Assembly (NCBI GenBank): GCA_963667315.1
Contig: OY763325.1
Location: 363,378 to 427,377 of the forward strand
Source: an uncultured Thermotogae bacterium
GTDB taxonomy: Bacteria > Thermotogota > Thermotogae > MWEM01
Direction of reading: 5' to 3'
DNA length: 64,000 nt
How positions within the stretch are numbered: position 1 is the stretch's first letter; the number at the start of each line of letters is the position of its first letter. Under the pieces are notes generated by a model that was not told the DNA's origin, did not search any database, and saw only the letters and a program-made list of their open reading frames with translations. Both the position numbers and the translations under genes were made by a program. Of this stretch, positions 1,119 to 20,231 are shown one piece after another.

Positions 1119-4100
1119 TTATTCTACATTTTCTCGCTTTATTTCTTTTTTTACGATGGCCCATTCTTCATCTAATTGCAGAATTAAATTTTTAATGTCT
1201 GATTTCTTTTCTTTAGATGCGATTTCTACTTCTCTTGCCATTTCTCCGAATTTGTTCAGACATATTTCAAGGGAACTGCCTTTGATTGCATGTGCTTCAA
1301 TTCTGATTATTTCATAATCCTTGATCTCGGCGGCTTCTTTTAGTTTTTTGATCCTTTCTTCAATATCATTTTCTGCTGCGTCAAGTAAAAGCATTAAAGT
1401 GTCTTTATCGTTTTCCAGTTTCTGCAATAGTTGTTCTTTGTCGAAATGTTTGAAGTTTTTTTCCTGTGAAATGATTTTTATTTCCTGTTGAATCATATCC
1501 GACGGGGATAAAAATTTTAACAAGGTTTTTTCAAGTATTGTCCTGTTGATAGGCTTGGTCAAAAAGTCATCCATCCCTGCATTCAGGCATTTTTCCCTTT
1601 CACCCGCCACAGCACCTGCTGTTAATGCAATGATCGGCGTTCTGATTTCTTTTTCGCTTTCCAGCTTTCTGATCAGCTTAGTTGCTTCAATACCATCTAC
1701 CTCAGGCATTTGAATGTCCATCAATATAATGTCGAATTTCTCATTAGCAACAGCCTCAAATGCCAACTTACCGTTTTCAGCGCTATAAATTCTCGGAGAA
1801 TTCAGAATCTGCTTAATAATTGTACTAATTAAAAGCATATTAATTCTGACATCTTCAACGATTAAAATCTTAGGAGACTTTTTCAAAGTGATCGGTTTGT
1901 GTATGCCATCGATATTATTTGGGAGTTGATTCTCAGCCCTTCTGAACAGATTTAAAAGTTCGTCTGTTTTAAATGGTTTAATGAGTGAATGGTCGAAAAC
2001 AGTTTTGCTAAAATTATTACGGTCTTCAGCGTTTATTAATAGAATAGTTTTTGGCTGATGATTTTTTTGCTTTAATTCAAGACTAAAAGCTGTAAGCTGT
2101 TCATGATCTTTTTGATGATAATCAATTATTAAGAAATCAAAAGGGATATCCCCTTTCTGTACTGACTTGAATTTTTCAATTGTATCAATTTGACTGGAGA
2201 CTACACCTACTTCTGAAAACACTTTATTGAGCATATTGAATAATGTAGTATTTTTTCCAATCAGAAGCGCGTTTTGTTTTGATTCAATAGATTTGTCAGA
2301 TAACCATGTTCTTTCATCGTATTTCGTTTCAACCTTGAAACTAAACGTAGACCCGGCACCTTCCGTGCTTTCGACCGATATCGTTCCGCCCATTTTATTG
2401 ACAAAATTCTTAGAGATAAACAATCCCAGTCCGGTTCCGCCATATTTCCTTGTCGTTGATGCATCAGCCTGCGAAAAAGACTTGAAGAGTCTTTTTTGTT
2501 TTTCTTCTGATATGCCAATCCCGGTATCTCTAATTGAAAAACTGAAAATTCCGGTATGAGAATCTGATGAAGCAAAATCAACAGCTAATTCCACTTCTCC
2601 TTCGTGTGTGAATTTTATGGCATTATTTAATAAGTTCAGAAGAATTTGTTTTAATCTTACCGGATCAAAATAAGCGTGTTCAGGCACTTCTGGAGATATG
2701 TTCAAAACAAGCTCTATCCCTTTTACTGAAGATTGATATTTTACCATATCAATACTTTGTTCCAATAATTTCGGGAGGTTTATCCTGATGATTTCCATTT
2801 CAATCTTTCCTGCTTCAATCTTTGAAATATCCAGGATGTCGTTGATGATTGCTAGCAGACTATGGGCTGAGTTTTTTAAAGTCGAAAGATACTGTTGTTG
2901 AAGATCATTGACTTCTGTCTCACTGAGTAAGGTGCTGAAACCGATAATACTGTTCAAAGGTGTTCTGACTTCATGACTGATATTTGCGAGGAATTCTGAT
3001 TTTGCTTTGTTCGAATTTTCAGCACTTTCTTTCTTTAATTTTAAATTCATACCCATAAGAATAAAATAAATAAGAACAAAAGCTATAATGATGTATAGTA
3101 AATATGCCCACCAGGTTTGCCAAGGCGGAGATGCGATGATTAATTTTATAGATGTACCGGTATCATTCCATATCCCATCATTATTTGCAGCTTTTATTCT
3201 GAAAGTGTAATTTCCGGGTTGAAGATTTGAGTAACTCATATAATTTCTGTTTCCACTGTAAATCCATTCTGAATCAACCCCTTCAAGTTTGTACGCATAT
3301 TGATTTTTTTCCGGTGAGAAGTAATCAATACCAATAAATTCAAAAGAAATGAAATTTCTGTTGTAAGGCAGGGTGATTTCATCGAGATTATAATAAGGGA
3401 TCTTTGTTTTAAAATTTTCATTCATTACTTTTATATCAATAATATGAATCTGCGGCTCATGAAAATTGATCATCTCAGGTGTTTGTTTGAAAACATATAT
3501 GCCATGCATGGCCCCAAAGTAAAGTGAACCGTCTTTTGCCTTTTCGTGCCCCTGATTGAATTCCATACCCCAAAGTCCGTCTTGTTCAGTGATATGCTTG
3601 AATTGATCAAGCTTATAATCATATATGTTTATTCCGTATGAGGTGGCGATCCAAATATTTCCCTTATCATCTTCCAAAATAGAGGAGATCGCATTATCGG
3701 ACAATCCGTCTTTTTTTGAGTAATGTGTGATCTTTCCCGTTTTTTCGTTCATTATGGTAATACCACCGCTTGACGTTCCAATCCAGATATTGCCTCTACT
3801 GTCTTCAAAGAGTGTTCTTACCGTATTGTTACTGATTGTATTTTTATCTTGTGGATCGTTGAAATACCTGACAAAATTATCGTTTTGTTCATCGTATCGA
3901 TTTAATCCATTATTGGTGCCAATCCATATATTGCCTTCAACATCTTCAATTAAATAATATACAAGGTTATCACTAAGTGTAGTTGAATCCTTTTCATCTG
4001 ATTTATAATTAACAAAACGGTTTTCTTCAAGGTTCCAAATATCAACACCATTTTTGTAATATCCGATCCAGAGATTGTTATGCTTATCTTCAAGCATTTG

Positions 4101-12054: not shown

Positions 12055-12225
12055 AATACCAACCGACGCTCCACGAATTTCGTGACAGTAATATGAGTAT
12101 TTCTCATATTCCCAGGAATACATTTCTTTTGGGGGAGATTTGTATCCTTCGGTGATCTCGCCTTTCGATCCGAACGTTCCCCGTTTCATGTTCAGACTTA
12201 CTGATCTCGACCACGCCTCCGATTA
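12055..12225 (-). promoter_or_regulatory. lysine riboswitch (L-box) aptamer in the asd operon leader
   Basis: Minus-strand sequence carries the conserved L-box blocks in the correct order: GGAGGCG ... GAAACGGGGAACG ... CACCGAAGG ... CUGUCACG ... UGGAGCGUC (compare B. subtilis lysC leader AGAGGUGC ... GAAAGGGGAGCG ... GCCGAAG ... CUGUCAAG ... UGGAGGGCU). Confidence 0.75.
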
Positions 12226-12253
12226 TTATATTCAATTTTCAAACGCACCATTC
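12225..12253 (-). promoter_or_regulatory. putative promoter of the riboswitch-asd operon (-10 TATAAT)
   Basis: TATAAT on the minus strand at 12230-12225, a few nt upstream of the riboswitch 5' end; no convincing -35 hexamer. Confidence 0.35.
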
Positions 12254-12529: not shown

Positions 12530-13807
12530 ATGAAGAAGAGTCTCTTAGTGTTCTTGTTGTTGATATTGACGGTCTTTTTTGTTTTCATAATCGTATCCTG
12601 TGCCGGAGGGGTAATCGGGTTTAACCTGACTCAGGCAAAAGCAGCCTTTGTTACCTGGATAGGGAACCAGGCGGGGGTCCCACCGGAGGCAGTTGGTGCT
12701 TATGTCGGAGCTTTTAATGCGGGAGATCTCATTTCATCTGAAAATCCGGCACCTGTTGCGGGAATTTCACCGAGACAGTCTCCTCCCATGACGGAAGCGG
12801 GGTGGCTTTTTTACCTTGATGAGCAGCCCGGAGCATTTTACTCTCATCCCGGTAAAATCTTTGCTGTCGGTCAAAGTGGTCAGATTTTATTCAGTGAAAA
12901 TACGCAAGGGTGGCCAACCATTAATGGGACACCGCCTGATTATGTTTTGGAAAAAGCGAGTACGAGAATTGCCAGTGAAACAAATACAATTACAGTCTAC
13001 AATCCTTCGCATGTGTATGTACCGGTAGGGATCATCAGATGGCCAGGTGTTATTGCCCATTTAATCAGAAGCGGTGCTGTGGTCACAAATGGTTTGACAC
13101 CAACTCAGAGTTTGTACTATGAAGCCTCTCAGGCGCATGATATGATGACGAATGCGATGGAGGACCTTATGGGTGTAACATATGTTCAGGCGGTGGATTA
13201 TCCGGATAATACCCCTACAGATGTGGCAAGTGCCGTCAGCTATCTCGTCAACACGATGAAAGTATCCAATATTACGATGTATTTTATCGCGCATGGAAAT
13301 ATTGAACTGATGAACGTTGGCGGCGTGTATTATTACGCATCGACTCTTAAAGCCCTTATCGATACCTATCCGAATGTTCGATTCAATCTGATTTTTGAAA
13401 CCTGTCATGGTGGAAGCTGGACAGATTATTTCCAGACACTTGGAGCGGCTGGGGTACCGAATGTTGATATGAGTATTTCATCCACATCCAGGACGAAGGG
13501 GGCATACCCGGACTGGGACTACAGTAGTGGCCTGACGGATTACAATGCCGCACAGGATGAATTTGTGGAATTTACGAGCGATTTCATCCTTCAGATGGAA
13601 TACTATACAGCGACAGCCAACTGGCCTACAGTAACCGGATTAACGACGCCCGCTTTGGCGAATAATAAACTGAGACTTTATTATTTATGTTTTACAAATG
13701 CGAGAAACAGGAATTATCCCGTTGCCGGTACACCGTCATCGGATTCCTATGTTTTGACTGAACGTACACCTATCAGTATTCAGGAACCACAGATCTACTA
13801 TCAATGA
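12530..13807 (+). CDS. secreted lipoprotein with a clan-CD (legumain/C13-like) cysteine-peptidase His...Cys motif pair
   Basis: 425 aa; signal peptide with lipobox (IIVSCAGG); YFIAHGN (candidate catalytic His-Gly) and IFETCHGGSWTDYF (candidate catalytic Cys), spaced as in legumain (HG ... E-A-C-E-S-G-S) and caspase-like clan CD; GGAGGTG RBS. Confidence 0.65.
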   Translation: MKKSLLVFLLLILTVFFVFIIVSCAGGVIGFNLTQAKAAFVTWIGNQAGVPPEAVGAYVGAFNAGDLISSENPAPVAGISPRQSPPMTEAGWLFYLDEQPGAFYSHPGKIFAVGQSGQILFSENTQGWPTINGTPPDYVLEKASTRIASETNTITVYNPSHVYVPVGIIRWPGVIAHLIRSGAVVTNGLTPTQSLYYEASQAHDMMTNAMEDLMGVTYVQAVDYPDNTPTDVASAVSYLVNTMKVSNITMYFIAHGNIELMNVGGVYYYASTLKALIDTYPNVRFNLIFETCHGGSWTDYFQTLGAAGVPNVDMSISSTSRTKGAYPDWDYSSGLTDYNAAQDEFVEFTSDFILQMEYYTATANWPTVTGLTTPALANNKLRLYYLCFTNARNRNYPVAGTPSSDSYVLTERTPISIQEPQIYYQ

Positions 13808-13883: not shown

Positions 13884-15128
13884 ATGAAAGGTTTAAAAGT
13901 AATGATCGTACTTGTTGTTTTTTCATTGGCGGTAATAATGGTTTCTTGTAGTGGTGGACTTGCAGGTGGCGTTAACATACAATTCGAGCTTGCAAAGCAG
14001 ACGTTCCTTGATTGGGCAGAAGCAGAAGCGGATCCCCACAGTGTGGGGATAGTCATCGGAGAGGTAAAAGCCGGTGATACGGTTGGCTCTGAGACGGTTG
14101 GTGTATTACAGTTGTTATCTTCCGAAAGGGGAACTCAGTTAAAGAAGGATGGTTGGGTATTTTACCTTGATGAGGCTCCGGGAGCCTTTTATTCCCATCC
14201 CGGTAGGATATTGGTTATAGACGGATCCGGTGAGATTTTGCACGAATCGGAAACAAATGGCTGGCCAACGGTTAATGGAGAAACACCAGATGTTATGAAA
14301 CTGTCTTTGAATGAAAGATTTTCAGCTGTACATGCTATCTGGAATCCAAGGAAAATCCTGATTCCGGTCTATACAATGATCAACCCCAATATCATCATGT
14401 ATTTAAGAACGCATGGTGCAGTTGTTGTCCAGGGGCTGACACCAAGTCAGAATCTTTATTCTGAAGCTGGTGATGCACATGATGATATGGTGACCGCTAT
14501 GAATGGATTGATGGGGGTATCAAATGTAACAGCGGTGGATTATCCGAATAATTCGCCATCGGATGTTGAATCTGCTGTTGAAGCGCTTCTAGACTCTTCT
14601 GCTATGATGCAAAATATAACACTTTATTTTATCGCACACGGGAATTATCAATACATGAATATCGGAGGGTATGGCTTTACCGCAGGGATGTTAAAAAATA
14701 TGATGGATGAATACCCTGATATTCACTTCTCGGTTATTATTGAAACCTGTCATGGCGGAAGCTGGACGGATTATTTTGCTGCACTCAGTCCGCAGCAGGC
14801 AAATCTGGATATGTTTATTTCCTCTACAAGTGCCGATAAAAGTGCATATCCTGATTATGACAGTTATTATGGGGTTTCAGATCATAACGGGGCAGAAGAT
14901 CAGCATGTAGAGTTTACAAGTGATTTCATTCTTCAGATGGAATACTATACCGATCCGTCAAACTGGCCAACCGTTACCGGGATGACATATCCAACATTCT
15001 CAAATAATTATTTAAAATTATATTATTTGGCATATAAAAAGGTTATTTCGAATAATCCTTCAGCGAATTCATTGGTTATATTTCAGCGAACACCGCTATT
15101 CTTCCAATCCCCTCAGATTCATTTCTGA
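13884..15128 (+). CDS. paralogous clan-CD (legumain/C13-like) peptidase lipoprotein
   Basis: 414 aa; lipobox IMVSCSGG; shares long blocks with the upstream gene: FYLDEAPGAFYSHPGRI, GWPTVNG, YFIAHGN, ETCHGGSWTDYF, EFTSDFILQMEYYT. Confidence 0.65.
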   Translation: MKGLKVMIVLVVFSLAVIMVSCSGGLAGGVNIQFELAKQTFLDWAEAEADPHSVGIVIGEVKAGDTVGSETVGVLQLLSSERGTQLKKDGWVFYLDEAPGAFYSHPGRILVIDGSGEILHESETNGWPTVNGETPDVMKLSLNERFSAVHAIWNPRKILIPVYTMINPNIIMYLRTHGAVVVQGLTPSQNLYSEAGDAHDDMVTAMNGLMGVSNVTAVDYPNNSPSDVESAVEALLDSSAMMQNITLYFIAHGNYQYMNIGGYGFTAGMLKNMMDEYPDIHFSVIIETCHGGSWTDYFAALSPQQANLDMFISSTSADKSAYPDYDSYYGVSDHNGAEDQHVEFTSDFILQMEYYTDPSNWPTVTGMTYPTFSNNYLKLYYLAYKKVISNNPSANSLVIFQRTPLFFQSPQIHF

Positions 15129-15181: not shown

Positions 15182-15910
15182 TTAATAATAAAGTTTTACC
15201 TTTCGATTTTTTATTTCGTGAGAATATGAATTTTCGGCTGTTTTACGCGTATGAACGATGACATGTTCTCCGTATGTGGTTTCTTTTTTATAATACAGTT
15301 TGATATGTTTGACGATATGTGTGTCGGTAAAGTTTAAAGGAAGAGATTCATAGATCCATAAAGGATATATGGCATTATTGACATGATGATAATAATCAAC
15401 ATCGAATTTTCTGATTTCAAACGCCTTTGAAAAATCACTGTTGTCAACATCAAATGCTTGCGGGTTATTAATTTCAAAAGGGGCTTCCGTTGACGTGACC
15501 CCGTAAAGATCATACATATAGCTTCTTGCTGAGGTCGGTCTGCGTTTTTCAACATTAAAAAGAATCCATTTTGATTTTGCCGAGGTGATCAGTTTATTGT
15601 TTTCATCATAGATTAAAAATTCTCTAAAAGCAATAAAACGATCGATTGCATGTGCAATTGTTTGGACATGGATGTGTTCTCCGTATTTCGGATATCTTTT
15701 GACATCTATTTCCCAATTTAATATAACCCATGCAATGGATTCCTCTTTCAGGATATCTTTTTCCTGTTCATAATATTTACCCGCCAGACGAGCCATTTCA
15801 CTGAAATAATTGATGATACTGACAATGTTTGCCTGGTTTTTATAAAATGTGTCTCTGTAACCCACTCTGAACTTCTCACTCACTTTTTGATTTATAATGA
15901 TCACCTGCAT
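15182..15910 (-). CDS. acyl-ACP thioesterase (tandem hotdog fold)
   Basis: 242 aa; two hotdog-like halves, the second with the D-x-x-H-V-N-N-x-x-Y motif (FDVDYYHHVNNAIYPLW) typical of FatA/FatB-type acyl-ACP thioesterases. Confidence 0.65.
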   Translation of the reverse strand: MQVIIINQKVSEKFRVGYRDTFYKNQANIVSIINYFSEMARLAGKYYEQEKDILKEESIAWVILNWEIDVKRYPKYGEHIHVQTIAHAIDRFIAFREFLIYDENNKLITSAKSKWILFNVEKRRPTSARSYMYDLYGVTSTEAPFEINNPQAFDVDNSDFSKAFEIRKFDVDYYHHVNNAIYPLWIYESLPLNFTDTHIVKHIKLYYKKETTYGEHVIVHTRKTAENSYSHEIKNRKVKLYY

Positions 15911-17147
15911 TTTTAAGTTTAAGAAATGGAAAAGTCAACAAAATTAAAATGGCAAAGAGTATCAGACCGATGCCGATACCGAATTGATCTGCCAGGAAAC
16001 CTATCAATGGTGAAAATAAGGCTATTAAAAGGGTTGTTAATTGAGATTCGATAGACAATCCTGTTGACAACTTCTCTTCAGGAATTATATCACTGATCAG
16101 TGATACGTTTAAAGGCCTTCGCAAATTCTGGATGATAAATATGAGAAGAAACATGATAACAGCCCCTATTTCAAATGAAAGAACATTAAAAATTCCAGCG
16201 AAAAGTATAAAAACTATCCCTGCAATCATCGTCAGGTTTAAGGCATGATGAAGGGTCTTCATTCTTTTCTGAATGAGATACGCATATTTTGAAGAGTAGG
16301 AGGTTAAAAGATAAATGAAGAAATACGTTAACCCCAGAATGAACGCAGTTTTCTTTTCTGAGTTGATCGGGATGAAAAAAGGAATTGAAACGGCAAAGAT
16401 TTCTAGTATTGGCTGAAGGAAATCTTTAGAAGATTTAAAAAAAGCACTGAAGACTGAGGAATTTAAATAGACGCGAAGATATTCGGATTTTCTGAGGTCT
16501 GATAATGGCTTTATAATTTCTTTAAGTGTTGCTCTTTTTGTTCTTTTCCGTATCACATCATCCAATTGGCTTGGATAGGTTAAAAGATTGAACAGATTTA
16601 TAATATACGGCACAATTGCCGCGAGAAAAACGATTCTGTAATTTCCTGTAAAAAACACAAGTGAAGCGGCGATTAAGGAATTTATTGCCGATCCTTTCTG
16701 TGAAAAACTCCTGGTTAATCCATAATATTGGACTTTTGCCGATTCCTTTTTAGTGAGTTTTAAATAACTCAGGATTAACGATTTATGAGTACCTGATCGT
16801 AAGGCTTCTCCAAAACCAAAGAAAATCATTGCAAAGATGTAAAGAACCATGTTCTGTGTAGTGAAGAAAATAATGAAAGAAACGATATAAGCGATCATAG
16901 AGAAAACCATGGTTATTTTTCTTCCAACATAATCCGCTAAAATACCGGTTGGGATTTCTGTCAGATTAGTCGATAATTCTCGGATCATGTATAGGATACC
17001 AATATTTAGAAATGAAAAACCCTGGTCACGGAAGAATAATATCATGAACGGTTCGAAGAACCTCAAATTTTTCAGAAATCCATACAGGGCAAATTTATAA
17101 AACTGTTTATCACGTTCAAATGATTCATTTTTCAAATTTATCACCAC
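15876..17147 (-). CDS. MFS transporter
   Basis: 423 aa, about 12 predicted TM helices; MFS signature in loop 2-3 (GILADYVGRK). Confidence 0.85.
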   Translation of the reverse strand: MVINLKNESFERDKQFYKFALYGFLKNLRFFEPFMILFFRDQGFSFLNIGILYMIRELSTNLTEIPTGILADYVGRKITMVFSMIAYIVSFIIFFTTQNMVLYIFAMIFFGFGEALRSGTHKSLILSYLKLTKKESAKVQYYGLTRSFSQKGSAINSLIAASLVFFTGNYRIVFLAAIVPYIINLFNLLTYPSQLDDVIRKRTKRATLKEIIKPLSDLRKSEYLRVYLNSSVFSAFFKSSKDFLQPILEIFAVSIPFFIPINSEKKTAFILGLTYFFIYLLTSYSSKYAYLIQKRMKTLHHALNLTMIAGIVFILFAGIFNVLSFEIGAVIMFLLIFIIQNLRRPLNVSLISDIIPEEKLSTGLSIESQLTTLLIALFSPLIGFLADQFGIGIGLILFAILILLTFPFLKLKNAGDHYKSKSE

Positions 17148-17256
17148 CTGAAATCAGCAGATGATTATAACATGTTGTGCCCTTATGTTGACAATCCATC
17201 TTGTTTATGATACCATCATATTAATCGATAGTATTCGTATCGAAATTTCTATTTTT

Positions 17257-17466
17257 AAGGAGGGCGATCCCGATATGATTATAATATGTGTGTTTGGACA
17301 TGTTATGTCAGGAATAGATGAAAACTGTATTGGGATAATGCCGTCTGTTTTCATGTAGAAACCGATTTGTTTTAATTATAAATTGTACATAAGGACCACG
17401 GTGTTAAAAATCAGACGACAGTCTGAATTTTTTTTGCGATTATATCGTATACGCCGTGGTCTTTTT
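17257..17466 (+). promoter_or_regulatory. putative leader peptide (27 codons, 17275-17358) plus terminator-like hairpins in the 5' leader of the MFS gene
   Basis: AAGGAGG (17257-17263), then ATG at 17275 encoding MIIICVFGHVMSGIDENCIGIMPSVFM and a stop at 17356. Downstream: tcagac-gaca-gtctga hairpin plus T8 (17411-17436), nested inside an 8-bp outer stem gaccacgg/ccgtggtc (17394-17401 / 17454-17461) followed by a T-run, then the GGAGG RBS of the transporter. Confidence 0.35.
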
Positions 17467-17480
17467 AATTGGAGGAAATA

Positions 17481-18728
17481 ATGAACACGATAAAGAAAAA
17501 GTTAAAGCATAATATTGGGAAAAATTATTTATTCACATTTGTGAAGAGTATTGACTTTACGAGGGGGCTTTGGATGCTTTATCTCGCATTCAGAGGAATG
17601 AGTCTGCTGGAAATTGGGGCACTTGAAGGAATATTTCATATTACATCACTGTTGATGGAAGTGCCGACGGGTGCTGTAGCCGATCTTATGGGGAGGAAAT
17701 TAAGCCGGGTTATGGGAATGATCATCAGTCTTTGTTCCCTTTTCATCCTGATGTTTTCTGATTCATTCTGGCTATTTGCACTTTCTTTTGTTTTTTCAGC
17801 CTTGTCCTATAATTTGGATTCGGGTTCAGGTGAAGCACTGGTTTATGATTCGATGAAGTCTTTGGGGGAAGAGAAAGGGTATACAAAAGTGCTTGGGAGA
17901 AATGAAGCGATCTTCAATATTGCATCCATTTTATCATTATTTATTGGTGGAATGCTTGGAGAAGAAAGTTTTATGCTGGCGTATACATGTTCTGCAGTGG
18001 TTGGGATCATTTCCCTGATTATTTCAACGACTTTCTATGAACCGCCTATTGAAAAAATAGTCAATTCTGAACACTCTTTAAAGAATTTTTTTATTCATAC
18101 CTATAAAAGTTTTAAGACACTCTTCTCGAATGGGGAAGTAGCTTTTCTAACCGTCTTTACAACGATATTTTCCGCTTTTGCGACGGTTATCTTCTTTTAT
18201 ATTCAGAATTATTGGAGAAGCGAAGGTATTAGTGTTTCTCAGGTTGGTATATTTCTGGCCATTGGATCCGGTGTATGTGCATTGAGTACGATAAATATGG
18301 AGAGAATCGAGTCTTTTCTCAGAAAGAGGAAGTGGTCGGTAATTTCAGAATATCCGTTCTTATTCTTCGGCCTGATGATATTTTCAGGGATATTTGGCTT
18401 GGCAATACTTGGGATTTTCAGGAATATCACACTATTATCCTTGATTTTTCTGGTCTTTACAATGGTTGGGGAATCAGGTATGTATGTTATGTTTAACAGT
18501 TTTTTAAATAAGCATATTCCTTCTCATCAGAGAGCAACGATTATCTCGATAGACAGTATGTTGTTTAGTATTTCAATGATCGGTGTTTTTCCCTTTTTTG
18601 GATGGATTGCAGATGCGTTTTCCTTTTATCACGCCTTTATCGTTTTGATTTTTATATCACTTGCATTATTAATTCCATCAGGATTTATCATCAGGAAGTT
18701 TTTGAGAAAAAGAGTTGTCAATGTATAA
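17481..18728 (+). CDS. MFS transporter (paralogue of the divergent upstream MFS gene)
   Basis: ATG at 17481 with GGAGG at 17471-17475 (the ORF-track start at 17469 is TTG); about 12 TM helices; GAVADLMGRK signature. Confidence 0.85.
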   Translation: MNTIKKKLKHNIGKNYLFTFVKSIDFTRGLWMLYLAFRGMSLLEIGALEGIFHITSLLMEVPTGAVADLMGRKLSRVMGMIISLCSLFILMFSDSFWLFALSFVFSALSYNLDSGSGEALVYDSMKSLGEEKGYTKVLGRNEAIFNIASILSLFIGGMLGEESFMLAYTCSAVVGIISLIISTTFYEPPIEKIVNSEHSLKNFFIHTYKSFKTLFSNGEVAFLTVFTTIFSAFATVIFFYIQNYWRSEGISVSQVGIFLAIGSGVCALSTINMERIESFLRKRKWSVISEYPFLFFGLMIFSGIFGLAILGIFRNITLLSLIFLVFTMVGESGMYVMFNSFLNKHIPSHQRATIISIDSMLFSISMIGVFPFFGWIADAFSFYHAFIVLIFISLALLIPSGFIIRKFLRKRVVNV

Positions 18729-18755: not shown

Positions 18756-19580
18756 ATGGGGATTAAGATATTTCAGGTTGATGCATTTACGAATGAGTTT
18801 TTCAAAGGGAATCCGGCTGCGGTCTGCGTTCTTGAGAAGGCTTTATCGGAAGAACTTTATCAGAAAATTGCAATGGAGATGAATCTGTCAGAAACAGCTT
18901 TTGTTATTGAAACAGCTGATGAAAACAAATTTAAGTTAAGGTGGTTTACATCGGAATGTGAAGTTGATTTATGCGGTCATGCAACACTATCCGCAGCACA
19001 TTGTCTTTTTGAGAAATTTGGTTTTCAGGGTGAACTCTGTTTTGAAACGAAGAGTGGTGTGCTGAAAGCTCAGGAGCATTATGGCAATATTCAGTTGGAT
19101 TTCCCTGCAAATAAACCGGAGAGCGTTGAACGACCGATTGAGGATATACAGGATGCCTTGAATTGTTCTGATTATTTTGAAGTTTATTACTCAAAGACGA
19201 GTGATTTTCTTTTGCTGCTGTTTGAAAGCGAAGAACAAATAGTCATGTTGAAGCCTGATTTTATGAAGATGAAAGCTCTGGAATTTGATTTAAATGTACA
19301 TGGTCTGATCGTAACGGCAAAAAATAACAGGGAAGCTGAAAATTACGATTTTTGTTCCAGGGTCTTTGTACCGTGGGAAGGAATCAACGAAGATCCGGTA
19401 ACCGGCTCTTCGCATACGCTTCTTGGACCTTTTTGGTCAGAAAGGTTGGGGAAGACTCTTGTTAGAGGTTATCAGGCTTCCTCAAGAGGCGGATATGTTA
19501 ATGTAGAGCATATGGAGAAAGGCAGAGTCACCCTAACCGGTGAAGCTGTAATAATACTGGAGGGAATTTTAAATGTTTAG
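18756..19580 (+). CDS. PhzF-family isomerase-like protein
   Basis: 274 aa; N-terminus IFQVDAFT ... GNPAAV and internal SETAF are hallmarks of the PhzF/YddE family. Confidence 0.8.
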   Translation: MGIKIFQVDAFTNEFFKGNPAAVCVLEKALSEELYQKIAMEMNLSETAFVIETADENKFKLRWFTSECEVDLCGHATLSAAHCLFEKFGFQGELCFETKSGVLKAQEHYGNIQLDFPANKPESVERPIEDIQDALNCSDYFEVYYSKTSDFLLLLFESEEQIVMLKPDFMKMKALEFDLNVHGLIVTAKNNREAENYDFCSRVFVPWEGINEDPVTGSSHTLLGPFWSERLGKTLVRGYQASSRGGYVNVEHMEKGRVTLTGEAVIILEGILNV

Positions 19581-19929
19581 CAATTTGACAATTAATGAGA
19601 AGCACGGTTATGCGATTTTTCCCGCGGATTACGAAATAAAATCCGTCAACGAATTGAATGATCTGTTGGGAAATTGTTATTATAATCATATTGAGAAAGT
19701 TCTAATCAATGAAAATAATCTCAGTGATACGTTCTTTGATCTTAAAACGAAAATTGCGGGAGATTATCTGCAGAAACTGGTTCTTTATCAATTTAAAGCT
19801 GCATTTGTGATTTCAGCGGAGAAAAACACGGGAAGGTTTTCGGAAATGGTACTGGAATCAAACAAAGGTAATCGCATCAATTTCTTTTATACATTTCAAG
19901 ATGCGGTGAATTGGCTGGAAACTATTTAG
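19573..19929 (+). CDS. hypothetical protein (possibly a DUF4180-type small protein, tentative)
   Basis: 118-aa ORF overlapping the PhzF stop by 8 nt (translational coupling); no motif I can name with confidence. Confidence 0.55.
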   Translation: MFSNLTINEKHGYAIFPADYEIKSVNELNDLLGNCYYNHIEKVLINENNLSDTFFDLKTKIAGDYLQKLVLYQFKAAFVISAEKNTGRFSEMVLESNKGNRINFFYTFQDAVNWLETI

Positions 19930-19969: not shown

Positions 19970-20044
19970 TGGAGCGGAAGACGGGATTCGAACCCGCGAC
20001 CCTCTGCTTGGCAAGCAGATGCTCTACCACTGAGCCACATCCGC
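19970..20044 (-). tRNA. tRNA-Gly (anticodon GCC), CCA encoded
   Basis: Minus-strand sequence GCGGATGTGGCTCAGTGGTAGAGCATCTGCTTGCCAAGCAGAGGGTCGCGGGTTCGAATCCCGTCTTCCGCTCCA; cloverleaf foldable by hand; anticodon loop UUGCCAA. Confidence 0.9.
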
Positions 20045-20053
20045 AGAAAACTG

Positions 20054-20137
20054 TGCGAGTGATGGGAGTTGAACCCATACGAGATCATTCTCACTGAATT
20101 CTAAGTCCAGCGCGTCTGCCAATTCCGCCACACTCGC
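20054..20137 (-). tRNA. tRNA-Leu (anticodon UAG), CCA not encoded
   Basis: 84-nt minus-strand sequence GCGAGTGTGGCGGAATTGGCAGACGCGCTGGACTTAGAATTCAG ... TGGGTTCAACTCCCATCACTCGCA; long variable arm; anticodon loop CUUAGAA; perfect 7-bp acceptor stem. Confidence 0.85.
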
Positions 20138-20155
20138 GCTTCCCAAAACTCTGAA

Positions 20156-20231
20156 TGGTGAGCCGCGAGGGACTTGAACCCTCGGCCCCATGATTAAAAG
20201 TCATGTGCTCTACCGACTGAGCTAGCAGCTC
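20156..20231 (-). tRNA. tRNA-Lys (anticodon UUU), CCA encoded
   Basis: Minus-strand sequence GAGCTGCTAGCTCAGTCGGTAGAGCACATGACTTTTAATCATGGGGCCGAGGGTTCAAGTCCCTCGCGGCTCACCA; anticodon loop CUUUUAA. Confidence 0.9.

Follow-up and report, generated by a model that had tools for sequence, protein, structure and literature searches.

Among the systems described so far, the attenuator of the Streptococcus mef(E)/mel [msr(D)] genes appears to be the closest in operation to the locus analysed here. Its leader encodes the peptides Mef(E)L (MTASMRLR) and MsrDL and contains a Rho-independent terminator; drug-dependent stalling on the leader prevents the terminator and gives read-through, the control being transcriptional (Chancey et al., 2015, PMC4335068; Fostier et al., 2023, PMC10314930). 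We characterized a leader in a 64,000-nucleotide (nt) stretch of DNA, hereafter the window, from an uncultured Thermotogae bacterium (assembly GCA_963667315.1, contig OY763325.1, positions 363,378 to 427,377 of the forward strand; coordinates below are those of the window). Here a 27-codon upstream open reading frame (uORF) is followed by an intrinsic terminator and then by a gene for a major facilitator superfamily (MFS) transporter. As judged from sequence comparison and RNA-fold modelling, the locus is probably a ribosome-dependent (leader-peptide) transcription attenuator of an operon encoding the MFS transporter, a PhzF-family isomerase and a DUF4180 protein. As in mef(E)/mel, a short leader ORF and an intrinsic terminator stand before an MFS efflux-type gene, and the terminator precedes the Shine-Dalgarno sequence (SD) of that gene rather than hiding it. 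Unlike mef(E)/mel, the window peptide is 27 amino acids (aa) long with the core VFGHV(I/M)SG, the transporter is not Mef, and an additional helix hides the SD and AUG of the uORF; moreover, the locus lies on the chromosome of an uncultured member of the Thermotogota, whereas mef(E)/mel is found on a mobile element of Gram-positive pathogens.

Three further groups of leaders resemble this one in part. With trpL, hisL, pheL, leuL and the ilv leaders it shares a four-segment logic (pairings 1:2, 2:3 and 3:4), in which segment 2 is masked, to the benefit of the terminator, once a ribosome has reached the end of the ORF, and a stall further upstream favours the antiterminator; the window leader is predicted to terminate when untranslated, which recalls trp superattenuation. 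Unlike these amino-acid attenuators, it has no tandem or enriched regulatory codons, its segment 1 is formed by the SD and AUG instead of by regulatory codons, and the genes downstream encode a transporter and an isomerase rather than a biosynthetic operon. Leaders of the ermC, ermB, cat86 and cmlA type operate by translational attenuation, unmasking the SD of the resistance gene. They have in common with the present leader a short conserved nascent peptide, whose sequence, and not codon supply, is thought to program the drug-dependent stall and the RNA rearrangement; there is no sequence similarity, and the switch in the window is an intrinsic terminator with the SD of the MFS gene outside the hairpins. 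SpeFL, the leader peptide of speF-potE, acts by blocking Rho-dependent termination. TnaC, of tnaCAB, also blocks Rho-dependent termination and stalls the ribosome at its stop codon (PMC8429421). The likeness to these two peptides (24-34 aa) lies in similar length, conservation at the amino-acid level and an operon with a transporter of the sensed or a related compound, and they provide the model for a substrate-sensing version of the proposal made below. They differ from the window leader in that its terminator is intrinsic and its geometry calls for stalling no later than codon 17.

Rfam yielded no family in the leader, whether the leader was scanned permissively, 20 related loci were scanned at the gathering threshold or the window was scanned as a whole. 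The leader-peptide profiles of NCBIfam and Pfam gave no match at E up to 10 for six Thermotogota-type peptides, three of them window-type. Full-text literature searches retrieved no description of an equivalent leader, and no leader-peptide attenuator of the Thermotogota was described in the literature found by search. Given these negative results and the logic shared with known attenuators, the sequence would place the leader in the class of leader-peptide transcription attenuators and in no named family: the type of switch is known, and the version in the window is, as far as sequence comparison indicates, undescribed.

The elements of the leader follow one another over some 300 nt of the forward strand. 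A sigma-70-type promoter for the leader and the MFS operon was predicted at 17188-17216 (+), with the -35 box TTGACA at 17188-17193, a 17-nt spacer, a TG at 17208-17209 and the -10 box TACCAT at 17211-17216; this extended -10 promoter agrees with the consensus at 10 of 12 positions. The first-pass annotation had recognized TTGACA as a candidate promoter but placed it at 17205-17210, so that the feature in fact starts about 17 nt upstream of 17205. Transcription is predicted to begin at about 17223-17225, some 50 nt upstream of the uORF. The same TTGACA-17-TAnnAT layout with TG is present in the closest relative, L001, and TTGAC(T/A)-17-TATTAT in L003-L007 and L085. The uORF extends from the ATG at 17275 to the TAG at 17356-17358 (+; 27 codons, MIIICVFGHVMSGIDENCIGIMPSVFM) and is preceded by the SD AAGGAGG at 17257-17263 (+), 11 nt ahead of the AUG; reading frame and ribosome binding site were both found exactly as first described. 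A 65-aa in-frame ORF from 17161 was rejected because it starts upstream of the -35 box.

The terminator occupies 17391-17466 (+) and folds as a three-way junction, with an outer stem of 17391-17404 and 17451-17464 ending in U5 (17462-17466) and two inner hairpins, at 17411-17426 (+; UCAGAC-GACA-GUCUGA, followed by A and U8 at 17428-17435) and at 17435-17449 (+). Nested terminator-like hairpins with U-tracts, as had been noticed earlier, are thus present; the fold is stable (-33.6 kcal/mol, z = -6.6; none of 200 shuffled sequences was equally stable) and conserved. For the leader as a whole (17225-17490) the folding energy is -77.6 kcal/mol (z = -5.1). Modelling suggests that polymerase may already terminate at inner hairpin 1, about 30 nt short of the completed outer stem. 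This hairpin is flanked on opposite sides by an A-tract and a U-tract (17405-17436) and is scored as a terminator on either strand; CGUCUG in the last uORF codons is complementary to its 5' arm (CAGACG). The SD of the MFS gene (GGAGG, 17471-17475) begins 5 nt, and its ATG (17481) lies 15 nt, past the last U-tract, the SD being outside the hairpins. From 17216 to the MFS start at 17481 no further promoter-like site was found on the + strand, and the MFS gene would therefore be transcribed only through the terminator.

This leader is conserved. It was found upstream of orthologous MFS genes in nine other distinct sequences of uncultured Thermotogota (L001-L007, L085 and L089; 57-82% MFS identity), the closest being metagenome-assembled genomes of uncultured Thermotogota and Thermotogaceae (L001, 82%; L002-L007, 60-63%). 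Within the 360 nt before the MFS gene, L001-L007 all show the same arrangement of promoter, AGGAGG, 27-codon uORF, terminator, GGAGG and MFS. A blind metagenome scan with a degenerate pattern from within the uORF gave seven matches, all seven directly before a terminator and this MFS gene; L085 is a new sequence from that scan, and L089, on a contig with a 57%-identical MFS, is the tenth leader. The terminator is kept in all 10 leaders, in nested form also in L001 and as a simple ACCACGGCG-GAAA-type hairpin with U7-U10 at the same place in L002-L007, L085 and L089. Against chance, the conservation of uORF and terminator together in nine other sequences is more decisive than the folding z-scores. 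No further copies of the leader were found in the window. A covariance model of the window-type leader had no matches beyond the leader of the window itself and, weakly (22.5 bits, E = 0.008), that of L010, a distant Thermotogae sequence; the L010 leader (2742-3000) has two tandem terminator-like hairpins between uORF and MFS.

Conservation of the small ORF in related genomes had been suggested as a check, and the comparison showed that the uORF is kept in the nine other Thermotogota sequences with substitutions of a coding type. Its start, frame and length agree in nine of 10 relatives (the stop comes two codons earlier in L004), and AGGAGG and the AUG are invariant across nine aligned leaders. 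The consensus peptide is M-L-I-Q-x-V-F-G-H-V-I-S-G-T-x-x-T-x-x-G-I-M-P-S-G-L-M. Nine residues are invariant in an alignment of nine peptides (M1, F7, G8, H9, V10, G13, G20, I21 and P23), and F7, G8, H9, V10 and G13 stay so when L089 is added. Most of these lie in a conserved block, codons 6-13 (17290-17313, +; V-F-G-H-V-M-S-G in the window), which we propose as a ribosome-arrest or sensor motif. Codons 7-10 (F-G-H-V) of this block all vary, and only in the third position (TTT/TTC, GGA/GGG, CAT/CAC, GTT/GTC/GTG). Pairwise synonymous and non-synonymous changes in codons 6-13 numbered 102 and 48 in frame, compared with 8 and 134 or 18 and 141 in the other two frames; for the whole uORF the figures were 209 and 448 in frame and 66 and 587 or 47 and 588 out of frame. 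These counts are descriptive, the sequences being phylogenetically non-independent and representing roughly six lineages. The pattern in codons 6-13 is, at the level of sequence comparison, the signature of selection on the encoded peptide, and the substitution patterns support translation of the uORF.

The end of the uORF behaves differently. In codons 20-23 (GGG AUA AUG CCG; GGGAUAAUGCCG) the wobble positions are invariant and the sole change is an A-to-G in the first position of codon 22, a pattern indicative of constraint on the RNA. Despite the kinship of the sequences, the contrast between the peptide-constrained and the RNA-constrained block appears clear. The peptide block (codons 6-13) and the RNA block (from codon 20) are separated by codons 14-19, a spacer of six codons, about half a ribosome footprint, that vary freely. 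This layout would fit a stall with the P site at about codons 13-17.

The RNA-constrained end of the uORF can take part in two alternative helices. Region 2 (17327-17351, +; codons 18-26, GGGAUAAUGCCGUCUGUUUU) mimics the 3' arm of the terminator. Its sub-region 2a (17327-17345, +) pairs with region 1 (17260-17276, +), which consists of the SD, spacer and AUG, so that the uORF would hide its own start site. This 1:2 helix, in which GGGAUAAUGCC pairs with the uORF SD, spacer and AUG, was present in the minimum-free-energy folds of all nine leaders; the duplex was calculated at -12 to -19 kcal/mol, and in eight of the nine leaders was matched by no more than eight of 1000 shuffles. In the window the fold of 17255-17345 reaches -27.1 kcal/mol (z -3.6). 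The stretch AAUGCCGUCUGUUUU (GCCGUCCGGUUU in L003-type leaders), which overlaps and follows GGGAUAAUGCC, resembles the terminator 3' arm and can pair with the 5' arm. Sub-region 2b (17336-17344 and 17347-17351, +) can thereby form a 2:3 antiterminator, the terminator 5' arm (17392-17406 and 17411-17417) doubling as its 3' strand. The pairs in the window are 17336-17344 with 17398-17406, 17347-17351 with 17392-17396 and, in addition, 17326-17333 with the 5' arm of the inner hairpin (17411-17417). The antiterminator can form in all nine leaders tested (-9 to -16 kcal/mol), and in six of them it was matched by at most eight of 1000 shuffles. Within the 1:2 and 2:3 helices 94% of alignment cells are paired, as compared with 35-48% after the partners were slid by one to three columns. 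The interior hairpins differ between window-type and L003-type leaders.

The effect of a ribosome was modelled in a position scan, in which everything 5' of a point 15 nt beyond the first nucleotide of the P-site codon was removed and the remaining RNA folded to the terminator loop. With the P site at about codons 11-17, the probability that the terminator 5' arm is held by upstream sequence was 0.66-0.97 in all nine leaders, with dips at earlier codons in several. The antiterminator was lost in all nine at P-site codons 18-21, but persisted at codon 17 or earlier. Folding with and without a ribosome, as the first-pass annotation had advised, thus makes the antiterminator dependent on the modelled ribosome position in every leader. 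Because the last uORF codons are complementary to the terminator 5' arm, the antiterminator would be lost once a ribosome reached the end of the uORF, and retained if the ribosome stalled at codon 17 or before. Without a ribosome, the window leader prefers the 1:2 helix and the terminator 5' arm is held with P = 0.29, which predicts termination. A similar drop near the end of the uORF was seen in distant Thermotogota leaders with unrelated uORF sequences (L008, L010, L011, L019, L024, L026 and L057; 43-45% MFS identity); in modelling terms, it is this drop that comes closest to supporting the design independently. Taken with the conserved coding uORF and the terminator as the only route to the transporter gene, the ribosome-dependent antiterminator supports the attenuator architecture that had originally been proposed for this leader.

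The mechanism that we propose has four segments: segment 1 is the SD and AUG of the uORF, segment 2 its last eight codons or so, segment 3 the terminator 5' arm and segment 4 the terminator 3' arm with the U-tract. Segment 2 would pair with either 1 or 3, the 2:3 antiterminator shutting out the 3:4 terminator. When the uORF is translated in full to its stop codon, the ribosome would cover segment 2, the terminator would form and transcription would end before the MFS gene (OFF). An untranslated leader of the window type would adopt 1:2 and 3:4 and would likewise be OFF. When the ribosome stalls on V-F-G-H-V-(I/M)-S-G (codons 6-13), its 3' edge would lie at about codon 18, 1:2 would be blocked and 2:3 would form, giving read-through (ON). 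We infer all three central elements of this scheme, namely stalling, its site at about codons 13-17 and its trigger.

As to the trigger, our best guess is a small molecule that acts on the ribosome as it translates. Conservation at the level of the peptide argues for a stall that depends on the nascent chain, brought about by a ribosome-targeting compound, a metabolite or a substrate. Induction by amino-acid availability, one of the two inputs first suggested, is disfavoured. The peptide has no tandem or enriched regulatory codons, its only repeat being the N-terminal I-I-I of the window and L001, which is not conserved, and amino-acid supply is accordingly unlikely as the trigger; an amino-acid-sensing attenuator was rejected on this ground and because the conserved block V-F-G-H-V-I-S-G is heterogeneous. 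A ribosome-targeting antibiotic or general translation stress is a possible trigger, which we put forward tentatively. That a specific metabolite or the transporter's own substrate is sensed together with the nascent chain is somewhat doubtful. If either small-molecule trigger is right, the pump would be made only when needed. A more far-reaching idea, which we regard as rather unlikely, is that the uORF encodes a ligand-sensing arrest peptide (core V-F-G-H-V-I-S-G) that detects the pump substrate or a natural product in the exit tunnel, and that it is one branch of a large undescribed set of lineage-specific peptides accompanying this MFS subfamily in the Thermotogota and Clostridia.

Several observations weigh against a leader-peptide attenuator. 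In L007 and L085 the antiterminator is predicted even in the absence of a ribosome (P about 0.95), and sub-clades may therefore not share the same untranslated state. A spacing of 10-12 nt separates the SD of the uORF from its AUG, and the most stable fold buries this SD, so that translation could be poor. The antiterminator was matched by 63, 85 and 106 of 1000 shuffles in L005, L001 and the window, respectively; in the window, the fold of 17326-17420 has a z of only -1.6, with 17 of 200 shuffles equally stable, and an antiterminator so much weaker than the -33.6 kcal/mol terminator must win kinetically. No compensatory double change was found in the 1:2 or 2:3 helix; the informative changes are all one-sided (U-G to U-A, G-U to G-C, C-G to U-G), and covariation therefore neither proves nor disproves the structures. 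Finally, the MFS protein resembles drug pumps only remotely. Its scores against the HP1165, Tet(40) and TetA(P)-type pumps of NCBIfam are 24-44 bits, compared with cut-offs of 475-800, none of the tetracycline-efflux MFS families (Tet(40), TetA(P), Tet(A-D), HP1165) was scored above its curated NCBIfam cut-off, and its best relative in the PDB, NorA, is weak (E = 5e-5).

The same hardware might serve to sense initiation, with loading of ribosomes on the uORF, and not a peptide-dependent stall in elongation, being regulated. The 1:2 helix would bury the SD and AUG, and loading of a pioneer ribosome before region 2 is transcribed would set the frequency of termination; temperature, the availability of ribosomes or initiation factors, initiation inhibitors and the speed or pausing of RNA polymerase are candidate inputs. 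Such a sensor would account for the helix that hides the SD and AUG ranking first among the structures in significance and conservation (-12 to -19 kcal/mol, and in every minimum-free-energy fold), for the anti-SD-like ACCUC/ACCUG or complementary boxes that were read by eye near the 3' end of the uORF in distant Thermotogota leaders, and for L007 and L085 favouring the antiterminator without a ribosome. It needs only an ORF of the right length, however, and leaves selection on the amino acids of FGHV(I)SG with free wobble positions unexplained. In addition, the window leader is predicted to terminate when untranslated (P = 0.29), just as when fully translated, so that initiation sensing would have no ON state there. 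We consider it improbable. Wobble-only variation in codons 7-10 argues equally against a riboswitch or the target RNA of an antiterminator protein, in which the ORF would be incidental and a ligand or protein would control the terminator: no RNA structure predicts that the most conserved interior block should vary at third codon positions only. The long-range 1:2 pairing around a multi-hairpin domain, followed by a terminator, is reminiscent of a riboswitch expression platform, codons 20-23 are conserved at the nucleotide level, and there is a very weak likeness to bglG/LicT elements (22.7 bits where the gathering score is 80, E = 0.18), although as an identity for the leader bglG-cis-reg was rejected as chance. 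Set against these features are the conservation of AGGAGG, AUG, frame and stop position, the interior hairpins that differ between window-type and L003-type leaders, the lack of any Rfam family at threshold in the window or the 20 related loci, and the immediate neighbours, among which no gene for an RNA-binding regulator of the BglG/LicT, PyrR or other type was identified. This explanation is very unlikely.

Selection on the peptide could also be met by a free-standing gene for a small protein (a membrane peptide that partners the transporter, an exported peptide or a type I toxin) with its own terminator, the MFS gene being expressed by leaky read-through. In favour of such a gene, the peptide is conserved and of fair hydrophobicity, transporters with small-protein partners are known, and the burial of the SD by a long-range fold recalls many type I toxin mRNAs. 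Yet no version of the peptide has a hydrophobic stretch of 20 residues, each being broken by D, E, N, K or T. In the C-terminal third it is the nucleotides, and not the amino acids, that are fixed, and this stretch is complementary to the terminator arm; a free-standing gene would have no need of this, which argues against one. The MFS gene has its SD 5 nt past the U-tract and no promoter of its own. Promoter-like sites are no commoner than in shuffled sequence (eight found against 6.5 expected). Over 80 homologous loci, moreover, the peptide changes completely while the uORF-plus-terminator layout stays. A free-standing gene thus has little to recommend it, and we rate it as highly improbable.

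The last point rests on a wider comparison of the transporter family. Among 80 homologous MFS loci, mostly from Clostridia with some from the Thermotogota, a terminator-like hairpin lies upstream in 73 and an SD-preceded uORF ending before the hairpin in 57. The peptides are lineage-specific, and the uORF-plus-terminator layout persists. It would appear from these sequences that the layout travels with the transporter family, and that the window-type leader is specific to one clade of Thermotogota. The leaders of homologous MFS genes in Clostridia, Fusibacter and Clostridium butyricum are like that of the window in gene family and in the order SD, uORF (26-42 codons), terminator and MFS. They differ from it in their peptides, e.g. 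...EYLAYAHAITANFGxxGESVSKIK... and MNGMNGFFAELYMN..., and, in the Clostridial leaders, in a conserved hairpin within the ORF and a G-rich box after the terminator. These uORF-plus-terminator leaders are apparently undescribed. Homology between the Thermotogota and Clostridial leader peptides, considered on account of a shared A/G-H-x-I-S/T ... FG, was dropped (hhalign probability 1.3%, and no match with the covariance model).

A leader-peptide attenuator at this locus would be of interest in several respects. Attenuators of this kind that do not sense amino acids are mostly known from a few resistance genes of pathogens. Nascent-peptide sensors have been characterized in few cases, and each new one is informative about the ribosome. 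The locus is a clean, computationally well-supported candidate in the Thermotogota, whose layout points to a stall at codons 13-17, and uORF-plus-terminator leaders, with peptides that differ by lineage, accompany an entire MFS subfamily in anaerobic Clostridia and Thermotogota. Since some of the carriers are cultivable (C. butyricum, C. punense and Fusibacter), the idea is testable; the inducer, once found, would also reveal the substrate of the pump. Should the locus prove to be a general translation-stress attenuator of an efflux pump, it would be a routine addition to the known class.

The regulated gene encodes a 415-aa protein with 12 transmembrane segments (17481-18728, +) that matches PF07690 (MFS_1) at 2e-25. 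The agreement of homologue N-termini and the GGAGG 5 nt ahead support the ATG at 17481 as its start, and a TTG at 17469 was dropped on the same grounds. Homologues of 409-413 aa cover 99% of the query. A public gene call for the identical protein (P0001, JGI, 395 aa) begins 20 codons after this ATG; the database start is probably wrong, the longer form being backed by homologue lengths and GGAGG. The gene for the PhzF-family isomerase (18756-19580, +) follows 28 nt after the MFS gene and is overlapped by that for the DUF4180 protein (19573-19929, +); from their spacing and order the three are probably co-transcribed. The order MFS-PhzF-DUF4180 recurs in L001 and L090, L091 has MFS-PhzF and then reaches the end of the locus, and L003-L007 have a PhzF gene some 0.9 kb downstream. 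Among the immediate neighbours no gene for a transcription factor was identified. Three tRNA genes (19973-20231, -) converge on the end of the operon, an arrangement shared by L001.

Upstream, a second, distantly related MFS gene is transcribed divergently (15876-17147, -) and is followed by an acyl-ACP thioesterase gene. The promoters of the two MFS genes stand back to back (17164-17216) with overlapping -35 boxes, the divergent one (-) comprising TCAACA (17191-17186), TG and TATAAT (17169-17164); the divergent gene has a very short 5' untranslated region and no leader. At the 5' end of the predicted leader transcript, the minimum-free-energy folds contain a stem-loop (17225-17243, +; UCGAUA-GUAUUCG-UAUCGA) that is kept only in the window and L001 and may stabilize the RNA.

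Details of the Clostridial leaders were noted in passing. Situated about 100-330 nt before the MFS start (in L009, L012, L013, L015, L020-L023, L025, L034, L036, L044, L063, L072 and others), and with no Rfam family, they form around an SD-preceded uORF of 36-42 codons, which in the largest Clostridial group encodes ...EYLAYAHAITANFGxxGESVSKIKxYVN.... The hairpin within the ORF, UUUUGGAC...GUCCAAAA, shows a compensatory change to UUUUAGAC/GUCUAAAA in L035 and L052. The terminator stem is unusually conserved in sequence (CCCUAAGUA...UACUUAGGG), and the G-rich box that follows it, UUUGGACACAUUUGGUUGGGAGGGC, is complementary to the 3' half of the hairpin within the ORF. Three sub-threshold matches of Clostridial uORF peptides (L014/L017/L018, L015 and L052) to the curated NCBIfam small-protein family NF041642, 'RAxF-45 family protein', were obtained (14-18 bits against 27, E = 0.002-0.03), and by this similarity that family may be a related leader peptide; a literature search found no mention of the name 'RAxF-45'. 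A protein database search with one Clostridial uORF peptide returned only two clusters of 'hypothetical protein'. A variant in Fusibacter and Acidaminobacteraceae, MNGMNGFFAELYMNAGDLGQxGRGLSKNR, has a pairing of GAGGUCUG with CAGACCUC across the terminator. On a megaplasmid of C. butyricum (NZ_CP033248.1; L088, 2216-2460), a 38%-identical MFS gene is preceded by an unannotated Cys-rich uORF of 31 codons, MNGLGYKPVCSSSACSKTCCFELLQDYCALF, and a terminator-like hairpin, AAGAACGUAUG...CAUAUGUUCUUUUU; being cultivable, its host makes this locus a possible experimental entry point.

Elsewhere in the window, a lysine riboswitch aptamer (RF00168) was detected at 12056-12229 (-; 81.7 bits, E = 8e-20). 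Two adjacent ORFs of about 415-425 aa (12530-13807 and 13884-15128, +) matched nothing in Pfam or NCBIfam at E up to 0.001, and the second of them has a 55%-identical counterpart in L001.

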